In this document: positions 4,195 to 42,314 of the stretch, in pieces
Layout of the letters: each line of letters begins with the position of its first letter
Position numbering within the stretch: position 1 is the first letter of the stretch
From: Deltaproteobacteria bacterium
Lineage (GTDB): Bacteria; Myxococcota; Myxococcia; SLRQ01
NCBI GenBank assembly: GCA_029210625.1
Contig: JARGFU010000001.1
Location: forward strand, 133,806-197,805
Direction: 5' to 3'
Length of the DNA: 64,000 bases
The notes under the pieces: model-generated
Databases searched by the model: none
Told to the model about the DNA's origin: nothing
What the model saw: the letters and a program-made list of their open reading frames with translations, nothing else
Position numbers and translations under genes: made by a program

Positions 4195-4356
4195 CTCGAT
4201 CGCTCCTTTTCACCGCCGATCCGGGCCCGCACCATGGTCAGGATCCTCCCCTCTGACAAGGCGCCGCGCCGGCACCCATGACGCAGCGCGCCGCGCCGCG
4301 GGCCGGTGGGGAAATCCGGCTCGCTCGGGTAGATTGGTGTCCGGGAGGGCCAGCGC

Positions 4357-4815
4357 ATGAAGCTGAAGCACTGGGACATCGTACTGGCGGCGGCGCTGAT
4401 CGGCGGGGGCCTCGGCTGCCCGAGCGAGAGCGCCGGGAACGCGGTCTGCGGCAACGCCGTGGTCGAGGTGGGCGAGGCCTGCGACGACGGCAACACCACC
4501 GCCGGGGACGGCTGCGACGCGACCTGCCAGTGGGAGCCCTGCACCGACGCGGACGGCGACGGCCACGAGGACGCCACCTGCGGGGGCGACGACTGCGACG
4601 ACGGCGACCCGGCGAACTTCCCCGGAAACCCCGAGGTCTGCGACGGCCTCGACAACGACTGCCAGGGGGGCGCCGACGACGGCCTGACCTTCCTCGACTA
4701 CTGGCCCGACCTCGACCAGGACGACCACGGCGACGCGAGCGCCACGCCGGTGAGCGCCTGCGCGCCGATCGCCGGTTCGGTGACCAACGGCGACGACTGC
4801 GACGACACGCAGTAA
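4357..4815 (+). CDS. Secreted or lipoprotein cysteine-rich repeat protein, N-terminal part. It ends at an in-frame TAA inside a repeat.
   Basis: Signal peptide MKLKHWDIVLAAALIGGGLGC. Contains a Myxococcus cysteine-rich repeat (GNAVVEVGEACDDGNTTAGDGCDATCQ) and MopE-like putative metal-binding motifs (CxDxDGDG...CDDGDPxxxPGNPEVCDGLDNDC). Confidence 0.6.
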   Translation: MKLKHWDIVLAAALIGGGLGCPSESAGNAVCGNAVVEVGEACDDGNTTAGDGCDATCQWEPCTDADGDGHEDATCGGDDCDDGDPANFPGNPEVCDGLDNDCQGGADDGLTFLDYWPDLDQDDHGDASATPVSACAPIAGSVTNGDDCDDTQ

Positions 4816-4917
4816 ACCATCAGCCCCGACGCCACCGAGCTCGAGTGCGATGGCTTCGACAACGACTGCGACCCCCTGACGCCGGACGACCTCGACCTCG
4901 ATCAGGACGGAGTCGGT

Positions 4918-6765
4918 GTGTGCAGCGACTGCAGCGACACCGATCCCGACAACTGGGACTCCTGCGCGACCTGCGTGGACGAGGACGGGGACGGCGCCTA
5001 CGCGGGCTGCGACGCCTACGTGATGCGGGCCGGCGAGGACTGCGAGCCCCTCGACCCCGCCATCCACCCGGGCGCCACCGAGATCTGCGACAACATCGAC
5101 AACGACTGCGTCGGCGGCGTCGACGACAACGTCGCCTACCTCGACTACTACCTGGATGGCGACGGCGACGGCTACGGGGACGGCGGCGCGGCCCCGGTGA
5201 ACGACTGCACGCCCCCGGCCGGGCGCGTGCCGGACGCCACCGACTGCGACGACGGGGACCCCAACAACTGGGCCTCCTGCAGCGCCTGCGTCGACGGGGA
5301 CGGCGACGGCACCTACGCCGGCTGTGACGCCTACCAGACGATCCTCGAGGACTGCGACGACGGGGACGGCGCCAACTTCCCCGGCAACACCGAGGTCTGC
5401 GACGGCGCGGACAACGACTGCGCCGGCGGGGCCGACGACGGCCTGACCTTCAGCGACTACTGGCCGGACATCGACGGCGACGGCTTCGGCGACGCGCTCG
5501 CGGCGCCGGTGAGCGCCTGCGCGCCCCCCGCAGGCACGGCGCCGAACGGCAACGACTGCGCCGACGGCGACCCGACGGTGAACCCCGGCGCCGTCGAGAT
5601 CTGCGAGGACACCATCGACAACGACTGCGTCGGCGGCGACGCGGTCTGCGCCTGCGGCAACGGCTCCCTCGAGAGCGGCGAGGTCTGCGACGACGGCAAC
5701 CTCTGCGCCTACGACGGCTGCTCCGGCGATCCGGCCGGCGCGGTGAACCAGTGCCAGGGCGAGGAGACCGTCGTCCTCACCACCCTGGCCCTCGGCACCG
5801 GCACCACCGGTTTCGACCTCGACGGCGACGGCACCATCGACAACCGGCTGGGCTCCAACGGGACCCTGCGGGGCGAGTTCAACAACATCCTCGCGGGCAC
5901 CCTCGACGACGGCAGCCTGATGCAGGTCTTCACCATCGCCGCCCTCGACAACGTGCCCTACAGCGGCACCGGCACGCCGGGCTACCAGGACGATCCCGAC
6001 GTGGTGGTCTCCCTCTACCCGACCGTCGATCCCGCCTGCACCACCGGCCCGGTCTACGGCGCCGCCAACCCGCCGCCCTGGATCGCGGGCCCCTGGCCGG
6101 TGGAGCTCTACAGCGACGCCGACGCCTGGGACACCGCGACCTGCGTCGGGGGCGCCCAGATCACCGACGCCGACGACCCGGCCAACGGCATCTACCCCAC
6201 CGGGGGAGGCCAGCTCGCGAACCCGGCCCCGCCGGCCCCCTACCTCCGGGCCCACGCCAGCCAGCTCTCCCTGGCGCTGGTCGGCGTCCAGACCGTCCTG
6301 CACGACGCCACCATCGAGGCCACGGTGGTGGACGACACGGCGGGCATCTCCGCGCTCACCAACGGCGTCCTCGGCGGAGCCGTGGCAGCCAGGAGCCTCT
6401 GGGGCATCCCCCTCGACGGCCCCGGCGGCAGCTGCGAGACCGCCCTCCACGCGGTCCGGGCGGTCGCCGGCGTCCCGGACATCGACATCGACGGCGACGG
6501 GTCCATGACGATCTCGGTGAGCTGCGCCGGCGGCTGGCTGGCCTGCCTGGTGCCCTGCGGTGGGGCGATCTGGTCCCTGGGCGACTGCGTGGACGAGGCC
6601 GGCACGGTCATCCCGGACAGCGACCTGAACGGCGATGGCGTCGTCTCCGACGGTGAGTGTCTCCTCGATCCCCGGATGGACGACGGCTACTCGGCGGGCA
6701 TGACCTTCACCGCCCAGGAGGTCAGCGTCACCCGCCAGGTCAGCGCGAGCACCTACTGCCCCTGA
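4918..6765 (+). CDS. Cysteine-rich repeat protein, continuation. Same frame as 4357..4815 and has no signal peptide of its own. Carries further MopE-like motifs and a C-terminal domain.
   Basis: Listed with a GTG start at 4918, but the frame is open and repeat-like immediately after the TAA at 4813-4815. Carries at least 6 more CDDGDPxxxPGAxExCDxxDNDC units. Confidence 0.55.
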   Translation: MCSDCSDTDPDNWDSCATCVDEDGDGAYAGCDAYVMRAGEDCEPLDPAIHPGATEICDNIDNDCVGGVDDNVAYLDYYLDGDGDGYGDGGAAPVNDCTPPAGRVPDATDCDDGDPNNWASCSACVDGDGDGTYAGCDAYQTILEDCDDGDGANFPGNTEVCDGADNDCAGGADDGLTFSDYWPDIDGDGFGDALAAPVSACAPPAGTAPNGNDCADGDPTVNPGAVEICEDTIDNDCVGGDAVCACGNGSLESGEVCDDGNLCAYDGCSGDPAGAVNQCQGEETVVLTTLALGTGTTGFDLDGDGTIDNRLGSNGTLRGEFNNILAGTLDDGSLMQVFTIAALDNVPYSGTGTPGYQDDPDVVVSLYPTVDPACTTGPVYGAANPPPWIAGPWPVELYSDADAWDTATCVGGAQITDADDPANGIYPTGGGQLANPAPPAPYLRAHASQLSLALVGVQTVLHDATIEATVVDDTAGISALTNGVLGGAVAARSLWGIPLDGPGGSCETALHAVRAVAGVPDIDIDGDGSMTISVSCAGGWLACLVPCGGAIWSLGDCVDEAGTVIPDSDLNGDGVVSDGECLLDPRMDDGYSAGMTFTAQEVSVTRQVSASTYCP

Positions 6766-7310: not shown

Positions 7311-8039
7311 TCAGCGCCGGCGCTGGGCCTCGCCGGTCATGGGCACGAAGCGCACCGGGGCGATGCTCCGGGAGGTGAAGCCCTCGGGGGTGCGGGTGAT
7401 CACCCGCAGGGACTGGAAGTGCTCCCCCACCGGGATGACCAGGCGCCCGCCCACCTTCAGCTGGGCCTTCAGGGGCTCGGGCACCTGCGGGGGCGCGGCG
7501 GTGACGACGATGGCGTCGAAGGGGGCCTTCTCGGGCCAGCCGGCGTAGCCGTCGCCGTGGCGGACGGTGACCGGGTAGCCCAGGGCCTTCAGCCGGGCGT
7601 CGGCCTCCTTCGCCAGGGCCTCGAGGATCTCGATGCTGTAGACCTCGGCCCCCATCCGGGCGAGGACCGCCGCCTGGTAGCCCGAGCCGGTGCCCACCTC
7701 CAGGACCCGGTCGCCTGGCTCGATCCCGGCCGCCTGGCTCATCAGGGCGACGATGTAGGGCTGGCTGATCGTCTGGCCGTGGCCGATGGGCAGGGGGTGG
7801 TCCGCGTGGGCCTCGGCCCGGTAGGCCGGCGGGACGAAGCGGTGCCGGGGGACCTCCCGCATCGCCACCAGCACCCTCGGATCGTCGATGCCCCGCTCCT
7901 CGATCTGGCTTCGGACCATGCTCGACCTCGCCGCGGCGGAGGCGTCCTTCTTCCCGGCCGGCTCACCTGAGGCGGCAGGAGAAGAGAGCAGCGCCACGAT
8001 CACGAGCGCCCGGCTGAACACGCCCCGCATGGGATCCAA
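7311..8039 (-). CDS. pcm: Protein-L-isoaspartate O-methyltransferase with an N-terminal signal peptide (exported form)
   Basis: Carries the PIMT motifs [24 protein letters not shown] and RLVIPVG. The N-terminus [22 protein letters not shown] is signal-like. Confidence 0.8.
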
Positions 8040-8064: not shown

Positions 8065-8892
8065 TCACTCCAGCCAGGTGCTGATCTTCTCCAGGAGGAC
8101 CGCGCCCTGGCTCACCGGCTTCTCCCCGTGCTCCACGCTGTCGAGGAGACCCTGGAGGGAGAGGACCAGCTTCTTGCGGTGCTGGCGCACGGCGCGCTCG
8201 GCGGCCAGCGTCCCCAGGCCGAGGGTGGTGGCCAGCGCGAGCGGGGCCACCAGGAGGAGGGGGAGCCCCCCGGCCAGGACCGCCGCGACCGAGAGCCCGA
8301 CCGTGCCGGCGGTGAAGCCGCTGTAGCTGCCGGCCGCCGCCGACACCCGCAGGTTCGAGAGGTCGACGGTGAGGGTGACCATCGAGCGCTCCTCGTCCAG
8401 GGACTCGATGCTCACCGCCAGGCTCCTGGCCTCGGCGAGCCGGTAGGGGCGGCCGGCGAAGTTCATGCCCCGCTGCAGCTTGCTGACGAAGCCGTCGGAG
8501 GGCTCCCAGAGGGTACGCCCGGGCTGGTTGCGGACCTTCCGCAGGCACTCCTGGGTGGTGAGGAAGCCCTCGAGCCGCCCGCTGACCTCCGCGAGGGTGC
8601 CGGGCACCACCCGGCTGACCTGCACGATGGCCGAGCCGAAGAGGAAGGTGGGCAGCTCCGCCTCCGGCGGCAGGTCGGGCACCAGGGAGAGGGCCTTCAC
8701 CTCCGAGAGGGCCTGCTGCACGTGGGCCGGATCGAGGCCGACCTCCTCGCCGATCTGCAGGACCTCGGCCCGGGTGAGCTCGGCGGCGTACTCCCGGCGG
8801 CGGAACTGCAGCTCGGTCGCCCGGCGGATGACCTTCTCCAGCTCGGCCTCGGTGATGGAGTCGCGCCGATCCGGCTCGTCATGGGCACTCAT
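8065..8892 (-). CDS. Hypothetical protein with a C-terminal hydrophobic segment
   Basis: Protein-like composition. The start [10 protein letters not shown] at 8892 has an AGGTAGAGGA RBS. No family recognised. Confidence 0.45.
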
Positions 8893-8946
8893 CGGATCCT
8901 CTACCTGACATGTGGCGTACACGAGCGATAGGGGGCCGGCCGCCGC

Positions 8947-9705
8947 TCATCTGACGGCCGCGAGCGCCTCCCGCGCCCGGGCGCCGAGGGCCTCCCGGGG
9001 CAGGCCGCCGGGGTAGACGGGGAAGCCCCCGCCCTCCTCCCGGGCGGCCAGGTGGGCGAGGAGGGGCGCGCGCAGCTCGGCGGCGCCGGGCACGCCCCGA
9101 CCTTGCGCCTCCCGGAGGATGGCCTCGGCGTCGAGGAGCTCGTGGAGCCCGACCTCGGCGGTGCCGATCCCACCGACGTGGCCGATGGCGCCGTCCGCCT
9201 GGCGGCGGGTCCGCAGCAGGGCGACCCAGTGGGCGACCTCCTCGTCGGCCACGCGGCCAGGGTGCTCCAGGGCCTCCCGCCAGCGCCACAGGGGCAGCTC
9301 CCGCCGGTGTTGGGGCAGGGAGAGGCCCAGGAGGAGCGCGACCGCCAGGATCACCGCCGTCTCCTCGCTCACCGGCAGGTGCGGGCCGAGGAGCCACCAG
9401 AGCGGCGCGACCCCCAGGAGGGGCAGGCAGAAGCCACCGATCACCGCGGCGGTGAGCCAGAGGGTCCCCCACCACCCCTCCCGGGCCGAGCGCTGGCGAT
9501 CGAAGGTCCAGCTCCAGGCGAGGAAGCGCACCCGGGTGGTGCCCTCCATCACCATGCCACCGCCCGGCGGGCGGAGAGCGGCCAGGGCCGCCGCGAGGGT
9601 GAGCTGGGCGACCAGGGCGAGGACCGAGGTGCTCGCGAGCCAGGCCAGGCTCGCCGCGGCGGCGAGGGGCAGGATCAGGCCGGCCAGGAGGGCGAGGAGG
9701 TTCAA
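8947..9705 (-). CDS. Hypothetical membrane protein
   Basis: Three or four TM helices at the N-terminus. High GC3 codon bias consistent with a real gene. No family recognised. Confidence 0.4.
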   Translation of the reverse strand: MNLLALLAGLILPLAAAASLAWLASTSVLALVAQLTLAAALAALRPPGGGMVMEGTTRVRFLAWSWTFDRQRSAREGWWGTLWLTAAVIGGFCLPLLGVAPLWWLLGPHLPVSEETAVILAVALLLGLSLPQHRRELPLWRWREALEHPGRVADEEVAHWVALLRTRRQADGAIGHVGGIGTAEVGLHELLDAEAILREAQGRGVPGAAELRAPLLAHLAAREEGGGFPVYPGGLPREALGARAREALAAVR

Positions 9706-9741: not shown

Positions 9742-11019
9742 CTACCTCCGGCGGAGCGCCACGGCCTCCCCCAGGGGCGCGCGGCGCTGCGCCAGCCAGG
9801 CGCGCCGGCCCAGGGCGAAGATCACCCCCACCGCCAGGCCGGCCTCGATGCCGAGGGCGAGGGTGCCGGCGAAGGTGAGGGCCGCCTCCGCGAACTCGCC
9901 CCTCGCCTCCCGGTAGAGGCGGCGCAGCTCGGCGTGATCGAAGAGCTTGCTCACCGCCACCACGATGATCGCCGCGAGGACGGCCCTCGGCAGGTGCTCG
10001 AAGAGCGGGGTCAGGAAGAGGAGGGTCGCGAGCAGCACGACGCCGCTGACCAGGGAGGCCACCGGGCTCTTCGCGCCAGCCTGGGCGTTCACCGCCGTGC
10101 GGCCGAAGCCTCCGGTCACGGGGAAGGCGCCGACCAGGGAGCCGCCGAGGTTCGCCAGGGAGAGCCCGAGGAGCTCCCGGCGCGGATCGATCTCGTGGCC
10201 GCTGCGTCGGGCGAAGGCCCGCGCCACCGAGATCGACTCGACGTAGGCCACCAGGGCGATGGCCAGGGCCGCGCCGCCCAGCGAGCCCAGGGGGAGCCCG
10301 GTGAGGGTGGGCAGCGCCACGGCGGGGAGGCCCGCGGGCACCTCCCCCACCACGGCGATCCCCTCGGCGGCGGGCCCGAGGAGGAGGACCCCGAGGGTGG
10401 CCAGCGCCATCACGAGGAGGGCGCGGGGCAGCCGCCGGAAGGTCCGCTCCAGGACGAGCAGGAGGGCCACGCTGCCGGCGCCCAGGACCGCCGTGAGGCC
10501 GTGGACCTGGTCGAGGCGGGCGATCACCGCCCCGAGGACCTGGTGGAGGGCGTGGGTGCGGGGCAGCTCCACGCCGAGGAGGTGCCGGAGCTGGCTGGCG
10601 CCGATGATCAGGGCCGCCGCTCCGGTGAAGCCCACCAGCACCGGGTGGGTGAGGACCCGGGTGAGGCGATCCAGGCGCAGGGCCGCCATCCCCAGCATCA
10701 CGATCCCCACCAGCGCGGCGAGGAGCACCGCGGCGGGGACACGGCCCGCGGGCTCGGGGGAGAGGCCGCCCACCGCCGTCCCCACCATCAGGGCGATCAT
10801 CGCCGCCGGCCCGACGGCCAGCTGCCGGGAGCTGCCGACCAGGGCGTAGAGGAAGAGCGGCGCGGTGGAGGCGTAGAGCCCGACCACCGGGGGCAGCCCC
10901 GCCAGCATGGCGTAGGCCATCCCCTGGGGGATGAGCAGCACCGCCGTGGTGAGCCCGGCGCTGAGGTCCCCGGGCAGGTCCTCGCGGCGATAGCCCTTCA
11001 GCCAAGGGGGGACGAGCAC
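9742..11019 (-). CDS. SulP family inorganic anion transporter. Transmembrane core only, with no C-terminal STAS domain.
   Basis: Carries the SulP signature GLYASTAPLFLYALVGSSRQLAVGPAAM. At 425 aa it is about 100 aa shorter than canonical SulP proteins. Confidence 0.75.
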   Translation of the reverse strand: MLVPPWLKGYRREDLPGDLSAGLTTAVLLIPQGMAYAMLAGLPPVVGLYASTAPLFLYALVGSSRQLAVGPAAMIALMVGTAVGGLSPEPAGRVPAAVLLAALVGIVMLGMAALRLDRLTRVLTHPVLVGFTGAAALIIGASQLRHLLGVELPRTHALHQVLGAVIARLDQVHGLTAVLGAGSVALLLVLERTFRRLPRALLVMALATLGVLLLGPAAEGIAVVGEVPAGLPAVALPTLTGLPLGSLGGAALAIALVAYVESISVARAFARRSGHEIDPRRELLGLSLANLGGSLVGAFPVTGGFGRTAVNAQAGAKSPVASLVSGVVLLATLLFLTPLFEHLPRAVLAAIIVVAVSKLFDHAELRRLYREARGEFAEAALTFAGTLALGIEAGLAVGVIFALGRRAWLAQRRAPLGEAVALRRR

Positions 11020-11034
11020 TAGGGATCGCTGCCC

Positions 11035-11946
11035 CTAGGGGCGCGCCTCGGAGATCGGCTCCTCGCGCAGCGAGGTGGCCTCGGCGCCCTTCGGGGCGGG
11101 CTCCGGCCGGAAGACGTTGACCGGGATCTTGAAGTAGCGCAGCAGCCGGCCGCCGCCGACGTTCACCTGCACGCTCTGGAAGAGCAGCCGGGGCGAGGAG
11201 AGGCCCGCGTCCCGCTGGCTGCGGAAGGCGACGAAGTCCGCTCGCGAGCGGGAGGCCGGCAGCTGGACGTTCGAGGCCTTCTGAGCGGCGAGGGTCGTCT
11301 CCCAGGCGAGCTCCCGGCCGCCGGGCTGGTAGTCGTGCCCGACGAAGACCCGAGTCTCGTCCGGCAGCGCGTAGAGGCGCCCGGTGATCGAGTCGTAGAG
11401 GTCCTCGGCGCTCCCCCCGGGGAAGTCGCAGCGGCCGGTCCCCATGTCGGGCATGAAGAGGGCGTCGCCGGTGAAGATCGCGTCCTCGAAGAGGTAGGTG
11501 ACGCAGGCCGGGGTGTGGCCCGGCGTCGAGATGACCTCGAAGGCGAGCTTCCCGGCCTCGACCACCTCACCGTCCTCGAGGAGGAGATCGAACTGGCTGC
11601 CGTCGGTGGCGAAGTCCGCGGGCAGCTCGAAGACCTTCTGGAAGACCTGCTGCACCTCGGTGATCCGGCGGCCGATGGCCAGGCGGGCCCCGGGGAAGCG
11701 GGCCTTGAGCTCCTGCGCCCCGGAGAGGTGATCGGCGTGGGCGTGGGTCTCGAGGATCAGGTGGAGCTTCAGCCCCTCGGCCTCGAGGAAGGCCGCCACC
11801 TTCTCCACCGGCCCGGCGCTGACCCGCGACTCGACCGTGTCGAGCGCGAGGACCGGATCGATCACCACGGCGTCACCGCTCTCGGGCTCGAACACCACGT
11901 AGGTGAAGGTGGAGGTGGCCTCGTCGTGGAAGGTCTCGATCTGCAT
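11035..11946 (-). CDS. MBL-fold metallo-hydrolase, persulfide dioxygenase (ETHE1/type II PDO)-like
   Basis: Carries the THAHADH metal-binding motif and ISTPGHTP. Sits directly upstream of a rhodanese gene. Confidence 0.7.
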
Positions 11947-11970
11947 GGGAGCGGCTCCTGCCTTCGAAGA

Positions 11971-12345
11971 TCAGGGGGCGATCCGGCTCCAGCCGATCAT
12001 CCCGCCCTGGAGGTTGTGGACGGTCGCGAAGCCCATCTGCATGAGGGCCATCGTCGCCCGGGCCGAGCGGGCGCCGGAGCGGCAGACCATCACCAGGGGC
12101 GGGTCGCGGTCCCAGGTGGAGGCGGCCTGGATCAGGCTCCCCAGGGGCACCAGCTCGGCGCCTTCGATGTGCCCGGCCTCGTACTCGTAGGGCTCCCGCA
12201 CGTCGATGACCCGCAGGCCGTGGTCGGGCTTCTCGAGCTGCCCGGCCAGCCATCCAGGGCCGGTCTGGGAGATCCCTCCCATCACCCGGGGCACTCCGTC
12301 GAGGTCGCTGGCTCCACCCATCCGTCTCTGGAAATCGAAGAGCAT
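11971..12345 (-). CDS. Single-domain rhodanese-like sulfurtransferase
   Basis: Active-site loop CRSGARS within a 124-aa rhodanese fold. Confidence 0.85.
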   Translation of the reverse strand: MLFDFQRRMGGASDLDGVPRVMGGISQTGPGWLAGQLEKPDHGLRVIDVREPYEYEAGHIEGAELVPLGSLIQAASTWDRDPPLVMVCRSGARSARATMALMQMGFATVHNLQGGMIGWSRIAP

Positions 12346-12496
12346 CCGGCTCTCTCCTCCAAGGCTCCAAATGGAGATTGATTCTCAACAGACAAGAGCC
12401 TGCGCCGGCCCCCGAGGATTCACCAGCCGGCATTTTCCCGGGTGGCCCTCGGGAAAATCTAGGGGGCGGAGGCCCGTGCTACCCTGGTTTGCGCAG

Positions 12497-13693
12497 ATGA
12501 AGTGGACCCTCGCCATCCTCACCGTGGTCCTGTTCTTCATGGCCGCCGGCTCACTGGTGGAGCGCCGCGAGGCGTCCCCGCCCGAGGTGGCGGCCGCGGA
12601 GCCGCCGCCGCCCGCCGGCCTCGAGGACCTCCAGGCGGGCCTGCGGCTCCTCGAGGCGGGCGACTACGACGCGGCTCAGCCCCCCCTCCTGCGGGCGGCG
12701 GCCAGCCCCGAGGCCACCCTGGCGGAGGAGGCGAGAGAGGGCCTGCTCACCTGCGAACGCGAGCTCCTCACCCTCGGCCTCCTCGAGTCGGTCCCCGAGG
12801 CCCTGCGCGAGGGCGACCTTGCGCGGGCGCGCCACCTGCTCGCCGAGGTGCCGGAGGCGAGCAAGCTCCACGAGGAGAGCCAGCGCGACCTCGCCGCCCT
12901 CTCCTCCCTGGCGGAGGGGCTCGGGAAGATGGAGGAGCCCTCCCGGCTGGAGGTCCTCCGGCACGTCCGGGCGCTCGCCGACGAGCACCCCCGCGCCTCA
13001 CAGCTCGTCGAGGCGCTCCACCCGAGGCTGGAGGCGGAGCTGCGCCAGCTCCGGGACGCCGCCCACCGCAGCTTCGAGCGTGACCCCGAGAGCGCGGAGG
13101 AGCTCGCCCGGCGGGGCCTGAGCTTCGCCCCGGCCTTCGGCGAGAAGAGCTCCCTCGTCCTCGTCGACCTGCAGGCGATCGTCGATCGGTTCGAGGCGCT
13201 GCCCCCGGCGCCGGCGGCGCCCCCGCCGGGGAGCTCGGCGGCCCGCACCGAGCCGGGCATCGCGCTGGCGCTGCGCGCCTTCGACGGCGAGCGCTTCGAA
13301 GAGGCCCGCAAGTTCCTCTGGGACGTCGGCAACCACGGCTCGAACGCGGGCGCCCGGCAGGAGGCCAGCCGCCTGAGCGTCGCCGTCGCCGAGTTCCTGC
13401 CCGACTTCCAGAGCGGGATGACCGCCCTGCGCCGGGGTGAGGCGGACGAGGCCATCGAGGACCTCACCCGGGCCGAGCAGACCATCGAGACGATCTCCCC
13501 CGGGGGCGCGCTGCGAGGGCGCCTCCGGCAGCAGCTCTCCCTCCTCCACGTGGGGCAGGGCAAGGCGGCCGCCGAGCTGGGGATGCCCCGGGAGGCCCGC
13601 GCCCACTTCCGGGCCGCCCTCGAGCTCGAGCCCGACAACCTCGAGGCGAAGCTCGGGATGGCCGCGACGAAGAGCCGGAAGAAGCCGCGCTGA
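12497..13693 (+). CDS. Hypothetical exported alpha-helical (TPR-like) protein
   Basis: ATG at 12497 (MKWTLAILTVVLFFMAAG, signal/anchor) is in frame with track ORF 12206. Helical repeat composition. The track's longer start lies in the divergent intergenic region. Confidence 0.5.
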   Translation: MKWTLAILTVVLFFMAAGSLVERREASPPEVAAAEPPPPAGLEDLQAGLRLLEAGDYDAAQPPLLRAAASPEATLAEEAREGLLTCERELLTLGLLESVPEALREGDLARARHLLAEVPEASKLHEESQRDLAALSSLAEGLGKMEEPSRLEVLRHVRALADEHPRASQLVEALHPRLEAELRQLRDAAHRSFERDPESAEELARRGLSFAPAFGEKSSLVLVDLQAIVDRFEALPPAPAAPPPGSSAARTEPGIALALRAFDGERFEEARKFLWDVGNHGSNAGARQEASRLSVAVAEFLPDFQSGMTALRRGEADEAIEDLTRAEQTIETISPGGALRGRLRQQLSLLHVGQGKAAAELGMPREARAHFRAALELEPDNLEAKLGMAATKSRKKPR

Positions 13694-17576: not shown

Positions 17577-18656
17577 TCAGGTGGTGAAGTTGACCGCCCG
17601 CTCCAGGTCGCTGGGGTTGGTGGCCGCCTCCTTGGCGACATCCAGGGTGACCTTCCCCTGGGAGAGCAGCTCCGCCAGGTGCTGATCGAAGGACTGGGTG
17701 CCGAGCAGGCCCCGGTTCTTCTCCAGGTAGTCCTTGATCTCGCCGGTGCGCTCCTCGTCCCGGATGAACTCCTGGATCGAGCGGGTGGTGAGCATCACCT
17801 CGCAGGCCACCACCCGGCCCGACCCCTGGGCCGGCGGTAGCAGGCGCTGGGAGACGGTCGACTTGAGGGCGTCGGCCAGCCGGGCGCGCACGCCGTGATG
17901 GGCCTCGGGGGGATAGGCCCCGAGCAGGCGGTTGATGGTGCGGACCGCGTCCTGGGTGTGCACCGTGGAGAGGACCAGGTGGCCGGTCTCGGCGGCCTTC
18001 AGCGCGATCTCGATGGTCTCGATGTCGCGCATCTCACCGAGCATGATCACGTCGGGGTCCTGGCGCAGCGAGGCCTTGAGCGCCGCCGCGAAGGAGGGCG
18101 TGTCGGGGCCGATCTCCCGCTGGGTCACCCGGGAGAGCTTGTCCTCGTGGAAGAACTCGATGGGGTCCTCGATGGTGAGGACGTGCTTGCGCTCGTGGGC
18201 GTTGATGTAGCCCACGATGGCCGCCAGGGTGCTGGACTTGCCCGAGCCGGTGACGCCGGTGACCAGCACCAGGCCCCGCTCGGTCTGGGCCACCTTCTCG
18301 AGCACCGCCGGGAGGTTGAGGCTGGCGAAGCTCGGGACGTCGTAGGGGATGGCCCGCAGGATGATCCCGAGGTTGCCCTCGCTCCGGAAGATGCTGGCCC
18401 GGAAGCGCGCCACCCCCGGCAGGGCGTAGGAGGCGTCGTGCTCGGTGAGCTCCTCGAGGCTGCCCTTGTAGCGGGAGCGGCTCAGGATGTGCCCGGCGAC
18501 CCGCTGGGTGTCCTCGGCCGAGAGGGCGGGGACCTTCACGGCGAGGAGCTCTCCGTTCACTCGCAGCGCGGGCGACGCGCCGACCTTGAAGTGGATGTCC
18601 GACGCGCCGGTGTTCACCGAGGCGCCCAGGAAGCGGTTGAAACTCTCGAGCTCCAT
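17577..18656 (-). CDS. pilT: Type IV pilus retraction ATPase PilT
   Basis: Walker A GVTGSGKST and the PilT motifs TIEDPIEF and LGEMRD. At 359 aa the length is typical. Confidence 0.9.
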   Translation of the reverse strand: MELESFNRFLGASVNTGASDIHFKVGASPALRVNGELLAVKVPALSAEDTQRVAGHILSRSRYKGSLEELTEHDASYALPGVARFRASIFRSEGNLGIILRAIPYDVPSFASLNLPAVLEKVAQTERGLVLVTGVTGSGKSSTLAAIVGYINAHERKHVLTIEDPIEFFHEDKLSRVTQREIGPDTPSFAAALKASLRQDPDVIMLGEMRDIETIEIALKAAETGHLVLSTVHTQDAVRTINRLLGAYPPEAHHGVRARLADALKSTVSQRLLPPAQGSGRVVACEVMLTTRSIQEFIRDEERTGEIKDYLEKNRGLLGTQSFDQHLAELLSQGKVTLDVAKEAATNPSDLERAVNFTT

Positions 18657-18672
18657 CGTGCTCTCCTCTCGC

Positions 18673-19170
18673 CTAGCGCATCCCGAGCTCGAAGGCCTTC
18701 GCGGCCGTGAGCTCGTCGTTGGTCTTCCGCAGCCGCTCGGCGAGCGTCTGGCAGAAGCCCCGGTAGATCTTCCGGGCCAGGGTGTCGTCCGCGGCCAGCA
18801 CCTTCTCGAAGGCGTCCCGCTCCATCACCAGCAGGCGGGCGTCCCTCGTCACCCGCACCCGGGCGCTGGTGAGCATGTCGTCGACCAGGGCCATCTCGCC
18901 GAAGATCTGCCCGGGGCCGAGGCGGCCGAGCTCCTCGTCGTCGCCGTCCCCGTCGGTGTCCTCGCCGCGGGTGACCAGGACCTCGCCCTCGATGATCACG
19001 TAGAGGGCATCCCCCAGGGCGCCCCGCTCGATCACGACCTCCCCGGCGGGCACGTCGCGGTGCGCGGCGATCTCCCCCAGGCGGGTGGTCTCGTCGAAGT
19101 TCAGCTGCGAGAAGATGCGGAGCTTCTGGAGCAGCTCCACCCCCTCCACCTCACCGAGTGCATTGTCCAC
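18673..19170 (-). CDS. Cyclic nucleotide-binding (cNMP/CAP effector) domain protein
   Basis: Carries FGEMALV…RSARV phosphate-binding-cassette-like motifs. Sits immediately upstream of pilT on the same strand. Confidence 0.7.
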   Translation of the reverse strand: MDNALGEVEGVELLQKLRIFSQLNFDETTRLGEIAAHRDVPAGEVVIERGALGDALYVIIEGEVLVTRGEDTDGDGDDEELGRLGPGQIFGEMALVDDMLTSARVRVTRDARLLVMERDAFEKVLAADDTLARKIYRGFCQTLAERLRKTNDELTAAKAFELGMR

Positions 19171-19223
19171 GGCTCACCTCCGAGGCCGGCATCATGGCCC
19201 GAACCGCTCCCGTGGATCCAGCT

Positions 19224-39566: not shown

Positions 39567-41505
39567 AGGCGCCGGCGTCCCAGCAGTCGGGGGCCGTGCC
39601 GCTCTGGCAGACGTTGCGGGCGGCGCCGAGCAGGTCGGTGCTCACCCCGTAGGCCGTGAGGTCCATGCCGATGTCGAGGGCCGCGGAGGTGGCGTCGAGG
39701 CGGTAGTCGAAGAGCTGGTAGCTCGCGCCCGCCAGCACGAAGGGCCGCAGGTCGCCCAGCACGGTGAGGGTCGTGGCGGAGTTCGCCAGGATCGGGAACT
39801 GGTGCACCGTCGCCGTGTCCGCCTGCACGAAGCGCCCGGCGTGCTCGCCGGCGGTCCAGCCGGCGTCGGCGTCGGTGAGGGTGGTCTCGACGACCTGGGG
39901 ATCCCAGCTGACCTCGTCCCAGGCGCCGCTGGCGGTCCCCGGCACGGTGACGAAGCCGGGCGCGGCGTCGACGACCCCGGCCCCGAGCGCGCAGGTCCCC
40001 TGGCCCCCACAGCCGAACCCCTCGAAGAGGGAGGCCTCGACCTCGATCACACCGGCGGCGGTGTTGCACCAGAGATCGGAGCCCGGCTCGTGATCGGCCA
40101 GGACGCTCCCGTAGACGCGGGAGAGGTTGCCCCGGTTCCAGAGGATCCCGCCGTAGGCCGTCGGGAGGTTGTTCGCCACGAGGTTCGAGTCGTGGGAGGC
40201 CGCGTTGGCGAAACAGAGCGTCTGCTCCGCGGCCTCGTTCCCGGCGACGACCGTCCGGCGCAGCTCGGTCGCGCTCCAGTTCGACATGAGCGCTGCGCAG
40301 CGGTTCCACTGGACGTCGTTCCAGGTCTCGTTGGCGACGAAGGAGCAGTCCTCGAAGACCACCGACGACTCGTGGATCCGGGCGCCGCCCCCTTCCGTGC
40401 GGGCGGAGTTGCTGACGAAGGCGGTGTTGGCCACCCGCACGTTCTGTGCGCCGACGGCGAGGAAGCCACCGCCGTCGTCGTCGACGATCTCGTAGTCTCC
40501 GAAGCGGCCCTCGGCCCGCCCACCGGTCACCACGAAGCCATCGAGGGTCGAGTTGCTCGTGGCGGTGACCACGTGCCAGACCTGCTCGGCCGAGTCGGGG
40601 CCGGCGTGGCCGTCGAGGATGGTGCGGTTCGTCCGCCAGTCACGCTCGGCGCGGGTCTGCTCGGTGCCGGCGAAGCCACCGTAGAGGGCCACCCAGGGCC
40701 GGAGCGCGATCGTGTCGGTCGGGTGGTCGTCGTAGACCCAGTAGTGCCCGGCCCGCACCCAGACCTCGCAGTGCTGCCCGTAGCCCGCGGCCCGCTTCGC
40801 CGCGAGCGCGATCCCGGCGTCGATCGAGGGCAGCGCGCCGGCCCAGGACTCGCCGTCGCAGCCGGTGCAGGTCGCCGCCGGATCGACCATCACCCGGCAG
40901 GTGCCGCAGTCCGTACCGGTCCAGCTCGGCCGGCAGACGCACTGCGACCCGTCGCAGTCCTGGTGAACTCCGCAGGCAGGGTCGCAGGCCACCAGCTCGC
41001 AGAGCCCGTCGAGGGGCTCAACCTCGGCGTCGAGAGCGCAGGCCCGCGCCACCTGCCCGCTCGAGTCGTCGCAGACCTCGTGGGGCTCGAGGGGCGGCAG
41101 GGCGATGTTGTCGCAGCCGGGCAGGCAGCTGCCGTCCCGATCGTGGTCCTGGTAGCCGGCCCGGCACCAGCAGCCGCTCATCGGCTCCTGGTAGCCACAG
41201 ACCCAGTCGGGCTCGACCTGACACTGGAAGCAGCCGTCACCCGGAAGATCGTTGCCGTCGTCGCACTCCTCGGCGGCGCCGAAGCCGTCGACCCAGGCGA
41301 AGCCGTCCCCGCAGAAGGCCTCCTGGCAGGTCCCCTGCGGACCGCTGGGGCAGGCGTCGTTGATCGAGAGGTTGCCGTCCTCGCAGCCCTCCCCCGGATC
41401 GAGGGTCGTGTTGCCGCAGGCCGGCTCTCCACCCCCGGGGAGGGCGAAGTCCCGATTGCAGGCGGACAGGGCCAGGAGCAGCAGGGGGAGCCGGGCGGTT
41501 CTCAC
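39553..41505 (-). CDS. Lipoprotein with Myxococcus cysteine-rich repeats and a right-handed parallel beta-helix domain
   Basis: Lipobox LLALSACN. Cys-rich repeats GEGCEDGNLSINDAC… and EECDDGNDLPGDGCFQC. Beta-helix repeat pattern in the C-terminal half. Confidence 0.6.
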   Translation of the reverse strand: MRTARLPLLLLALSACNRDFALPGGGEPACGNTTLDPGEGCEDGNLSINDACPSGPQGTCQEAFCGDGFAWVDGFGAAEECDDGNDLPGDGCFQCQVEPDWVCGYQEPMSGCWCRAGYQDHDRDGSCLPGCDNIALPPLEPHEVCDDSSGQVARACALDAEVEPLDGLCELVACDPACGVHQDCDGSQCVCRPSWTGTDCGTCRVMVDPAATCTGCDGESWAGALPSIDAGIALAAKRAAGYGQHCEVWVRAGHYWVYDDHPTDTIALRPWVALYGGFAGTEQTRAERDWRTNRTILDGHAGPDSAEQVWHVVTATSNSTLDGFVVTGGRAEGRFGDYEIVDDDGGGFLAVGAQNVRVANTAFVSNSARTEGGGARIHESSVVFEDCSFVANETWNDVQWNRCAALMSNWSATELRRTVVAGNEAAEQTLCFANAASHDSNLVANNLPTAYGGILWNRGNLSRVYGSVLADHEPGSDLWCNTAAGVIEVEASLFEGFGCGGQGTCALGAGVVDAAPGFVTVPGTASGAWDEVSWDPQVVETTLTDADAGWTAGEHAGRFVQADTATVHQFPILANSATTLTVLGDLRPFVLAGASYQLFDYRLDATSAALDIGMDLTAYGVSTDLLGAARNVCQSGTAPDCWDAGAYERP

Positions 41506-42314
41506 CCTCCGAGCCTAGAACGAGATCCGGACTCCCGAACAGCCTCGGGCTCCCCGAGCGGCGCCGCGACGAAGTAGCCGTAGGTGTAGGCGTCGGAGAA
41601 GCGCTCGAAGAGCGCGATCTCCTCCCGGGCCGTGGCGGCGATCTCGCCGGCCACCGGATCCTCCGGCAGGTCGCGCACGAGCTCTTCGATCCTCTGCCGC
41701 ATGGGCGCGTAGTACTCGTCCCACCAGGCCGAGGGAGGCAGAGGGAAGGACGCCAGGGACGCGTAGCCCGCCGCCTCGATCTCGGCGCGAACCCCGGCCT
41801 CGTCGGTGATGGCCGGATACTCGGCCTCCCACCACCGGCGGAGCTCCGGCGGGGGATCGGGCACCCGCCAGATCGCCTCGGTGAAGATCACCACGCCTCC
41901 GGGAGCGAGCAGCCGCCTCCAGGCCTCCAACCCCACCCGCACGCCGAGGTTGTAGATCGCTCCCTCCGAGCAGATCAGGTCCTGGCTGGCGGGCTCCACC
42001 GGCGGGGAAGCCATGTCCCCGACCTCGACCCGCACCCTCCCGGCGAGGCCGACCTGCTCGATCCGCTCGCGAGCCCGCGCCACCAGCGGCGCCGAGAGAT
42101 CGAGGGCCAGGATCTCGGCGCCGGGGAGCGCTGCCGCGAGGGCCAGGGTCTGCGCCCCCGGGCCACAGCCCAGATCGAGCACCCTCGCCGGCGCCTCACC
42201 CGGGACGAGCGCCAGGGCGCGGCGGGTGTGCGCGTCCGCACCAGGACCCGCCCGGGGCAGCGTCCCGTAGACCCGGAGGAAGAGCGCCATGGTTCGCGGA
42301 TCGGCGAGGTCCAT
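41502..42314 (-). CDS. Class I SAM-dependent methyltransferase
   Basis: Motif I VLDLGCGPGAQT. Confidence 0.7.
   Translation of the reverse strand: MDLADPRTMALFLRVYGTLPRAGPGADAHTRRALALVPGEAPARVLDLGCGPGAQTLALAAALPGAEILALDLSAPLVARARERIEQVGLAGRVRVEVGDMASPPVEPASQDLICSEGAIYNLGVRVGLEAWRRLLAPGGVVIFTEAIWRVPDPPPELRRWWEAEYPAITDEAGVRAEIEAAGYASLASFPLPPSAWWDEYYAPMRQRIEELVRDLPEDPVAGEIAATAREEIALFERFSDAYTYGYFVAAPLGEPEAVRESGSRSRLGG

Follow-up and report, generated by a model that had tools for sequence, protein, structure and literature searches.

What is a SulP anion transporter that ends before its STAS domain doing next to genes for a persulfide dioxygenase (PDO) and a rhodanese? This question is raised by three consecutive genes at positions 9742–12345 of a 64,000-nt stretch (hereafter, the window) of contig JARGFU010000001.1, from the metagenome-assembled genome (MAG) of a Deltaproteobacteria bacterium. 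A first-pass annotation of this DNA had suggested that the three genes form a compact sulfur-oxidation module. Our analysis supported the view that the locus is another PDO–rhodanese sulfur-detoxification cluster with an anion transporter, and the earlier interpretation was essentially right. The three proteins are reasonably likely to constitute a cytoplasmic persulfide-oxidation module, in which the rhodanese and a type II PDO would operate together with a SulP transporter of sulfur oxyanions, probably directed outward.

Enzymes of the cluster and the linkage of PDO and SulP genes

The cluster consists of the following genes, listed in their order of reading; the second protein has a metallo-β-lactamase (MBL) fold.

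11971–12345, minus strand: predicted single-domain rhodanese (sulfurtransferase), 124 aa; PF00581; first gene of the cluster
11035–11946, minus strand: predicted type II PDO (MBL fold), 303 aa; PDB, NCBIfam and Pfam matches
9742–11019, minus strand: SulP/SLC26 anion transporter without a STAS domain, 425 aa; PF00916, PDB match and AlphaFold2 (AF2) model

The three minus-strand open reading frames (ORFs) claimed in the first-pass annotation were recovered with the same positions and lengths, and its quoted motifs were present, THAHADHLS at residues 67–75 of the MBL protein and CRSGARS in the rhodanese from C88. The intergenic gaps measured 24 nt between the rhodanese and PDO genes and 15 nt between the PDO and SulP genes. 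The GC content at third codon positions (GC3) of the three frames was 0.89–0.97 (rhodanese 0.89, SulP 0.97) in a window with a GC content of ca. 72%, indicating that the three ORFs are real genes. Pfam assigned Rhodanese (E-value 8.7e-19), Lactamase_B (1.6e-21) and Sulfate_transp (4.1e-94) to the three proteins, and the NCBI record of the MAG also annotates the 425-aa protein as a SulP transporter. A GGAGGAG Shine–Dalgarno sequence lies 8 nt upstream of the rhodanese ATG, and an AGGAG ribosome-binding site precedes the PDO ATG. The three genes are probably co-transcribed from the divergent promoter region at ca. 12346–12496.

The MBL protein was most similar to type II PDOs. Its top three PDB matches were PaPDO of Pseudomonas aeruginosa (9G8T, 3.3e-74), PpPDO2 of P. 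putida (4YSK/4YSL, 2.6e-72) and 4EFZ (1.9e-71), with identities of ca. 48% to PaPDO and ca. 46% to PpPDO2 over nearly the full length. Type II PDOs or their close homologues (9g8t, 4ysk and 4efz) gave 244–253 bits, compared with 103–127 bits for type I PDOs (4chl, 4ysb and 9rhq; ETHE1 and MxPDO), 32–51 bits for type III PDOs (3r2u and 3tp9) and 40–62 bits (1e-12 to 1e-16) for glyoxalase II structures. Residues 67–75 fit T-H-h-H-A-D-H-h-S/T, the motif defining type I/II PDOs (PMC6060420). The metal ligands of PaPDO are His71, His146 and Asp163, from which alignment mapped the predicted Fe ligands His68, His144 and Asp161 onto the window protein (PMC12856154). The additional loops and C-terminal extension specific to type II proteins (ca. 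295-aa class) were present as well. The size (ca. 295–303 aa), the Fe triad, T-H-x-H-A-D-H and the C-terminal extension are thus common to PaPDO, PpPDO2 and the window PDO (PMC12856154; PMC6060420), whereas the gene for the latter differs in being flanked by those of a free rhodanese and of SulP, in a high-GC, Deltaproteobacteria/Myxococcota-like MAG. Judged by these sequence features, the MBL protein is assigned to the type II PDOs and not to glyoxalase II. It grouped with characterised type II PDOs, and the clustering with glyoxalase II that the first-pass annotation had named as contrary evidence was not seen. The label "ETHE1/type-II" used there was correct in its second half but not in its first, since ETHE1 is classed as a type I PDO (PMC5702731, PMC6060420).

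Two results would agree with the MBL protein being instead a glyoxalase II-type thiolesterase or another hydrolase in a neighbourhood without a common sulfur function. Pfam returned the generic Lactamase_B domain alone (PF00753, residues 13–204), and the protein scored below the whole-protein cut-off of its best NCBIfam family, Blh (NF040641; 295 bits against 625 bits), with GloB (glyoxalase II) as the second-best family (4.8e-27, under the GloB cut-off). However, the Blh cut-off weighs little because it was set for a two-domain protein, and the dioxygenase half of the model (positions 143–423) was matched end to end (6.4e-88). A hydrolase is also disfavoured by the large difference in bit scores between type II PDOs and glyoxalases II, by the ligand triad for mononuclear Fe, by the C-terminal extension typical of type II and by the PDO–SulP–rhodanese neighbourhood found in ca. 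70% of relatives (see below). This explanation is therefore highly improbable.

The 124-aa protein is, by its sequence, a sulfurtransferase with a catalytic Cys loop. Cys88 lies in the CRSGARS loop, which fits the six-residue C-R-x-G-x-R loop, and the best PDB matches were a thiosulfate sulfurtransferase of P. aeruginosa (1yt8, 2e-17) and the rhodanese domain of BpPRF (5ve3, 4.7e-16), an active domain with which the protein aligns. Free-standing rhodaneses are common in sqr–pdo clusters, where they stimulate PDO and limit the build-up of sulfane sulfur (PMC9163753). A "split Blh", that is, an unfused version of Blh made of the rhodanese and the PDO, was considered and rejected; in the NCBIfam search, the rhodanese had no match to the Blh model, including its N-terminal sulfurtransferase part, and the PDO missed the Blh cut-off.

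Strong evidence for the participation of SulP came from gene linkage. Loci of SulP relatives (ca. 37%–58% identity) with flanks of at least 3 kb upstream and at least 3.5 kb downstream were scored for a PDO-like MBL gene within 3 kb. Such a gene was found at 42 of the 57 loci in species-representative genomes (39 on the same strand) and, among the matches listed for metagenome contigs, at 20 of 30 loci (18 on the same strand); none of the metagenome relatives among the matches listed was closer to the window SulP than those from the genome scan. The hosts belonged to Bacteroidota, Myxococcota, Actinomycetota, Deinococcota, Bacillota, Gemmatimonadota, Rhodothermota and Gammaproteobacteria. The commonest partners were CstB-like type III MBL–rhodanese fusions of ca. 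470 aa with the type III motif H-x-H-A-D-F, exemplified by the partner at locus L062, which matched 3TP9 (3.6e-70) and 3R2U of Staphylococcus aureus (5.6e-61). Type II PDOs occurred at L013, L026, L041 and L043, type I PDOs at L001 and L021, and BpPRF-like fusions at L003 and L030. Since the partners cover all three PDO types, SulP appears to follow the reaction rather than one enzyme lineage. At L041, from a member of Polyangiaceae, the rhodanese, PDO and SulP genes followed one another in the same order as in the window, with a YeeE/YedE half between PDO and SulP. A genome holds perhaps one to three PDO copies, and the frequency of chance adjacency to a SulP gene would be well below 1% (an estimate, not a computed value). 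The PDO–SulP linkage in this clade, which holds for ca. 70% of relatives, is not due to chance, and this synteny across phyla strongly backs the earlier inclusion of SulP in the module.

In the literature searched, only one description of an explicit pdo–sulP cluster was found, that of Methylophaga thiooxydans, in which sulP of the pdo-sqrB-sulP clusters was expressed during growth on dimethyl sulfide (PMC6548844). The mto clusters of this species (mtoX ... pdo-sqrB-sulP) resemble the window in that pdo lies beside sulP, described as a "sulfate/sulfite permease" and expressed during the oxidation of reduced sulfur. They differ in holding methanethiol oxidase and sulfide:quinone oxidoreductase (SQR), neither of which occurs in the window, which has a rhodanese.

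Membrane domain of SulP and the missing STAS domain

The membrane domain of SulP was complete. The PF00916 match spanned profile positions 2–374 of 380, and the best sequence and fold match was the plant transporter AtSULTR4;1 (7LHV; 1.7e-82), with residues 6–404 of the query aligned to residues 85–490. The AF2 model, built with 74 homologues (pLDDT 87.3, pTM 0.86), contained all 14 helices in the core/gate arrangement of a 7 + 7 inverted repeat, with the two pairs of β-strand and half-helix at residues 68–84 and 302–313. Foldseek superimposed this model on AtSULTR4;1 (7lhv) and prestin (7v75), giving a TM-score of 0.90 when normalised to the query and a root-mean-square deviation of 1.6–1.7 Å.

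The protein ends 22 residues past transmembrane helix 14 (TM14). Pfam found no STAS domain (PF01740) in it, and TIGR00815 scored 328 bits against a cut-off of 380, with the match ending at model position 426 of 565. A tblastn search with the last 190 aa of each of 39 homologues that carry STAS detected no STAS remnant in any frame 3′ of the SulP gene, and the alignments of these queries to the window stopped at nt ca. 9811 (SulP residue ca. 403). A frameshifted or pseudogenised STAS domain was excluded, as the downstream DNA had no STAS match in any frame. The absence of the STAS domain is true, and the earlier claim that SulP ends before STAS was borne out by both the Pfam and the tblastn results. 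SulP probably lacks, as a consequence, STAS-mediated regulation and STAS-stabilised dimerisation. The natural C-terminus lies at approximately the same point as the engineered STAS deletion of AtSULTR4;1 (cut at residue 503), which retained sulfate transport at a reduced level and ran as a monomer (PMC8298490).

The frequency of STAS loss was estimated among 269 representatives of clusters at 50% identity, with a sequence counted as STAS-less if it ended at most 60 residues past TM14. At most 31 of the 269 fell into this category, a few of them apparently through frameshifts in the gene call. Every one of the 148 SulP genes that were complete in the two sets of loci had a C-terminal extension of STAS length. 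The best 120 homologues included one other STAS-less sequence, P0034, which nests among STAS-bearing proteins, indicating at least two independent losses of STAS. The first-pass annotation had called a STAS-less SulP unusual, which is appropriate for a minority form, although the form is not unique and arose at least twice. A neighbour-joining tree grouped the window SulP with 12 other STAS-less sequences. However, the profile of this group ranked its own members below canonical proteins with STAS, so the grouping may reflect long-branch attraction. The notion of a coherent STAS-less SulP subfamily was dropped for this reason.

The gene neighbourhoods of the STAS-less relatives were similar in theme. 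Genes for a type I PDO and a rhodanese, together with two YeeE/YedE halves, precede that of P0034. P0131, the closest relative of the window SulP (58% identity), also has Gly306 and resembles the window protein in its basic tail, and its gene lies directly 3′ of a type II PDO gene whose product is 60% identical to the window PDO. P0162 (locus L168) heads an operon of SulP, type II PDO and YeeE/YedE halves with the sigma-54 promoter TGGCAC-N5-CTGCT, beside a divergent sigma-54 activator gene. P0125 has YeeE/YedE halves and a sigma-54 activator as neighbours, and no PDO gene lies less than 5 kb away. Four of the five other STAS-less SulPs that could be placed therefore adjoin PDO or YeeE/YedE genes; the fifth, P0130, comes from a 1.7-kb contig on which SulP is followed by a rhodanese fragment alone.

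Two further features were recorded around P0162 (L168/L169; GCA_003565935.1, 4783–5000 and 8747–9424). Two direct repeats of ca. 40 bp precede the sigma-54 promoter, and the divergent activator is receiver-less and FisR-like. Approximately 0.6 kb past the operon lies a PCMT gene, the product of which is 56% identical to the PCMT encoded in the window (7311–8039), hinting at partial synteny.

Positions that best separated STAS-less from STAS-bearing relatives were 118–124, 367–379 and 402 (nt ca. 10650–10668, ca. 9885–9921 and ca. 9814). In the AF2 model, they mapped to the end of TM14 and to two short helices, one between TM4 and TM5 and the other between TM12 and TM13. As an example, Asn121 was replaced by Arg in 15 of 31 STAS-less but only 12 of 237 STAS-bearing sequences. 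Going by the modelled topology, these segments are presumably cytoplasmic and may be former contact surfaces of STAS.

Anion site, transport direction and proposed mechanism

In the proposed mechanism, the rhodanese would load sulfane sulfur onto Cys88 and shuttle it among low-molecular-weight thiols, persulfides and sulfite, supplying glutathione persulfide to the PDO and forming thiosulfate from sulfite and persulfide. The mononuclear Fe(II) site of the PDO (His68/His144/Asp161) would convert the sulfur of the persulfide to sulfite with O2. SulP would carry sulfite, thiosulfate or, after further oxidation, sulfate across the inner membrane, most likely outward, and could thereby occupy the role held by TauE/SafE or YeeE/YedE-type proteins in other PDO operons. 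We infer the substrate and direction of SulP, the co-transcription of the genes and the physiological trigger. For another SulP protein, Rv1739c, a summary in PMC5840216 states that sulfate transport was inhibited by sulfite and thiosulfate.

In AtSULTR4;1, the anion site comprises Gln112, Tyr116, Ser392 and Arg393, Glu347 couples protons, and an S392A variant was almost inactive (PMC8298490). Gln112, Tyr116, Arg393 and Glu347 are conserved in the window SulP as Q32, Y36, R307 and E261, respectively, according to the alignment. Beyond these shared residues, the window protein differs from AtSULTR4;1 in being bacterial, PDO-linked and devoid of STAS, in having Gly in place of Ser392 and in the divergence of the short helices at TM4/5 and TM12/13.

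Several observations weigh against a functional, outward-directed module. In SulP itself, Gly306 occupies the position of the sulfate ligand Ser392, where 234 of 268 relatives have Ser, and the protein was the most divergent of 74 relatives, with 29 departures at positions conserved in at least 90% of sequences against a median of 4. The conserved E261 suggests that H+-coupled symport would favour uptake over export. The gaps of 15–24 nt suggest co-transcription, but scans around the cluster found neither a sigma-70 promoter consensus nor a terminator. Pfam and NCBIfam searches of the called genes of the 64 kb yielded no sqr and no regulator of the CstR, BigR, SqrR or FisR type. Moreover, the characterised members of YeeE/YedE, whose genes co-occur with SulPs in many relatives, are thiosulfate importers. 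The first-pass annotation had described the PDO and rhodanese as the canonical pair leading from sulfide via persulfide to sulfite or thiosulfate. The part of that route from persulfide onward is retained here, but the sulfide step is missing in cis, as no SQR is encoded in the 64 kb. The locus would accordingly be, in cis, a persulfide-to-sulfite/thiosulfate module and not one for full sulfide oxidation.

The divergence of SulP could mean that the two enzymes are functional but that the truncated transporter is a decaying or shifted remnant, either inactive or carrying an unrelated anion. The 29 departures, the highest number among the 74 relatives, would agree with this, as would the loss of 8 of 73 otherwise invariant residues and the Ser-to-Gly change at a position where S392A nearly abolishes the activity of AtSULTR4;1. 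In addition, several SLC26 proteins lose some or all of their activity when STAS is deleted (discussed in PMC8298490), and long open frames easily arise at 72% GC. On the other hand, the SulP frame has a GC3 of 0.97, and the protein keeps 65 of the 73 columns that are invariant in its 73 relatives and 128 of the 157 columns conserved in at least 90% of them (82%) at an overall identity of ca. 53%. This retention points to purifying selection on a modified SulP rather than to decay. The AF2 model has high confidence and lacks no part of the fold. At an identity of 58%, P0131 still has this architecture, Gly306 and a neighbouring PDO, indicating long maintenance. The positions distinguishing STAS-less proteins are also confined to three segments, cytoplasmic by their likely topology, instead of being scattered. 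A remnant is therefore improbable.

A second possibility, the main alternative to the favoured reading, concerns direction. The module might serve the acquisition of thiosulfate or sulfite, with H+-coupled import by SulP, cleavage of thiosulfate by the rhodanese into sulfite and persulfide, conversion of the latter by the PDO to a second sulfite and subsequent assimilation. The conservation of E261 (E347 of AtSULTR4;1) together with Q32, Y36 and R307 (PMC8298490) would fit import, and among solved structures the nearest relatives carry sulfate into the cytosol by symport with H+. Uptake is likewise the activity given for the characterised bacterial SulP Rv1739c in the part of PMC5840216 that treats it. 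The presence of YeeE/YedE thiosulfate importers in many of the clusters points in the same direction, although a second importer would be redundant in relatives that already have YeeE/YedE. Furthermore, PDO operons of the cst and BigR kind are switched on in response to stress from sulfide or persulfide and contain exporters such as TauE. Scans of the 64-kb window revealed no genes for assimilatory sulfate or sulfite reduction near the cluster. The replacement of Ser by Gly at the sulfate ligand also makes classical sulfate uptake doubtful. Considering both sides, we regard acquisition as rather unlikely and favour a persulfide-oxidation module with probable export.

Surroundings, related systems and significance

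Elements around the cluster that bear on its regulation and boundaries were as follows.

12432–12458, no strand: perfect AT-rich palindrome ATTTTCCCG-N9-CGGGAAAAT, the sole one found in an inverted-repeat scan of 12300–12560
8947–9705, minus strand: orf252, membrane protein with its own AGGAGG ribosome-binding site; next ORF after SulP
8065–8922, minus strand: orf285, co-directional, after orf252

The palindrome lies in the divergent intergenic region of ca. 150 bp between the rhodanese gene and a gene for a TPR protein. It was the sole match to its own pattern in the window even when three mismatches were allowed, and none of 100 shuffles produced a match. It is a candidate operator for some regulator. 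A scan for a sigma-54 promoter of the FisR type upstream of the cluster found none.

The ORFs orf252 and orf285 were examined as possible further members. Neither had a Pfam or NCBIfam match, and tblastn detected neither of them at 84 SulP loci or at L165–L169. Only eight homologues of orf252 were found in 5.8 billion proteins; it is lineage-restricted, and the two contexts examined were unrelated to sulfur. Both ORFs were therefore rejected as members, and it was concluded that the module ends at SulP, where the first-pass annotation had drawn its boundary. The 64-kb window encodes neither TauE nor YeeE/YedE.

Elsewhere in the window, a 782-aa ORF (30660–33008, plus strand) with matches to MVP_shoulder (6.1e-31) and Vault_3 (6.4e-09) represents a bacterial homologue of the Major Vault Protein. 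Large secreted-looking proteins with Cu-binding_MopE repeats and Cys-rich DUF4215 repeats are encoded at 4333–6765 (plus strand) and 39553–41514 (minus strand). An ORF with a cyclic-nucleotide-binding domain (18673–19173, minus strand) overlaps an ORF for a T2SSE-type secretion ATPase (17577–18824, minus strand) in stop-to-stop coordinates, and these may be one fused gene or two.

The cluster shares parts with several known systems. In some Proteobacteria, the PDO gene lies beside sqr under the control of FisR. The cst operon of S. aureus consists of cstR, tauE, cstA, cstB and sqr, with SQR and the repressor CstR in cis. The window resembles it in combining a PDO, a rhodanese-type sulfurtransferase and a membrane transporter of anions for the oxidised product. 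However, S. aureus has CstB, a type III MBL–rhodanese fusion, and a TauE/SafE transporter, whereas the window has a type II PDO and SulP, with neither SQR nor CstR in 64 kb. The BigR–Blh operon of Xylella and Agrobacterium (NF040641) also contains a PDO domain of the type II class and co-encoded membrane transport proteins, but in Blh an N-terminal sulfurtransferase is fused to the dioxygenase. In the window, by comparison, the PDO is unfused, the transporter is a SulP protein and there is no BigR/ArsR regulator. BpPRF of Paraburkholderia phytofirmans (5VE3-5) shows the same pairing of PDO and rhodanese, and few solved structures are closer to the window rhodanese than the rhodanese domain of this fusion. 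BpPRF nevertheless unites both functions in a single chain, and its PDO domain is of type I (PMC6060420), in contrast to the two genes and the type II PDO found here.

PDO–rhodanese pairs are a well-known means of disposing of sulfide-derived persulfides in heterotrophic bacteria and mitochondria, and the two enzymes of the window are ordinary in this respect. We tentatively suggest, as a possibility beyond the locus itself, that the bacterial SulP clade nearest to the eukaryotic sulfate transporters is as a rule a dedicated carrier of sulfur oxyanions for PDO systems, in which minimal forms without STAS arose repeatedly. On this view, the window SulP, with Gly in place of the sulfate-ligand Ser and with divergent inter-helix segments that presumably once faced STAS, would be a working exporter free of regulation and perhaps monomeric, the specificity of which shifted from sulfate to sulfite or thiosulfate. 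The widespread partnership of PDO and SulP points to a general step in sulfide oxidation, the exit of sulfite or thiosulfate from the cell or their entry into it. Earlier studies on the role of STAS in SLC26 proteins used engineered deletions, and natural STAS-less members such as the one described here provide material for studying the part of this domain in dimerisation, regulation and transport rate.

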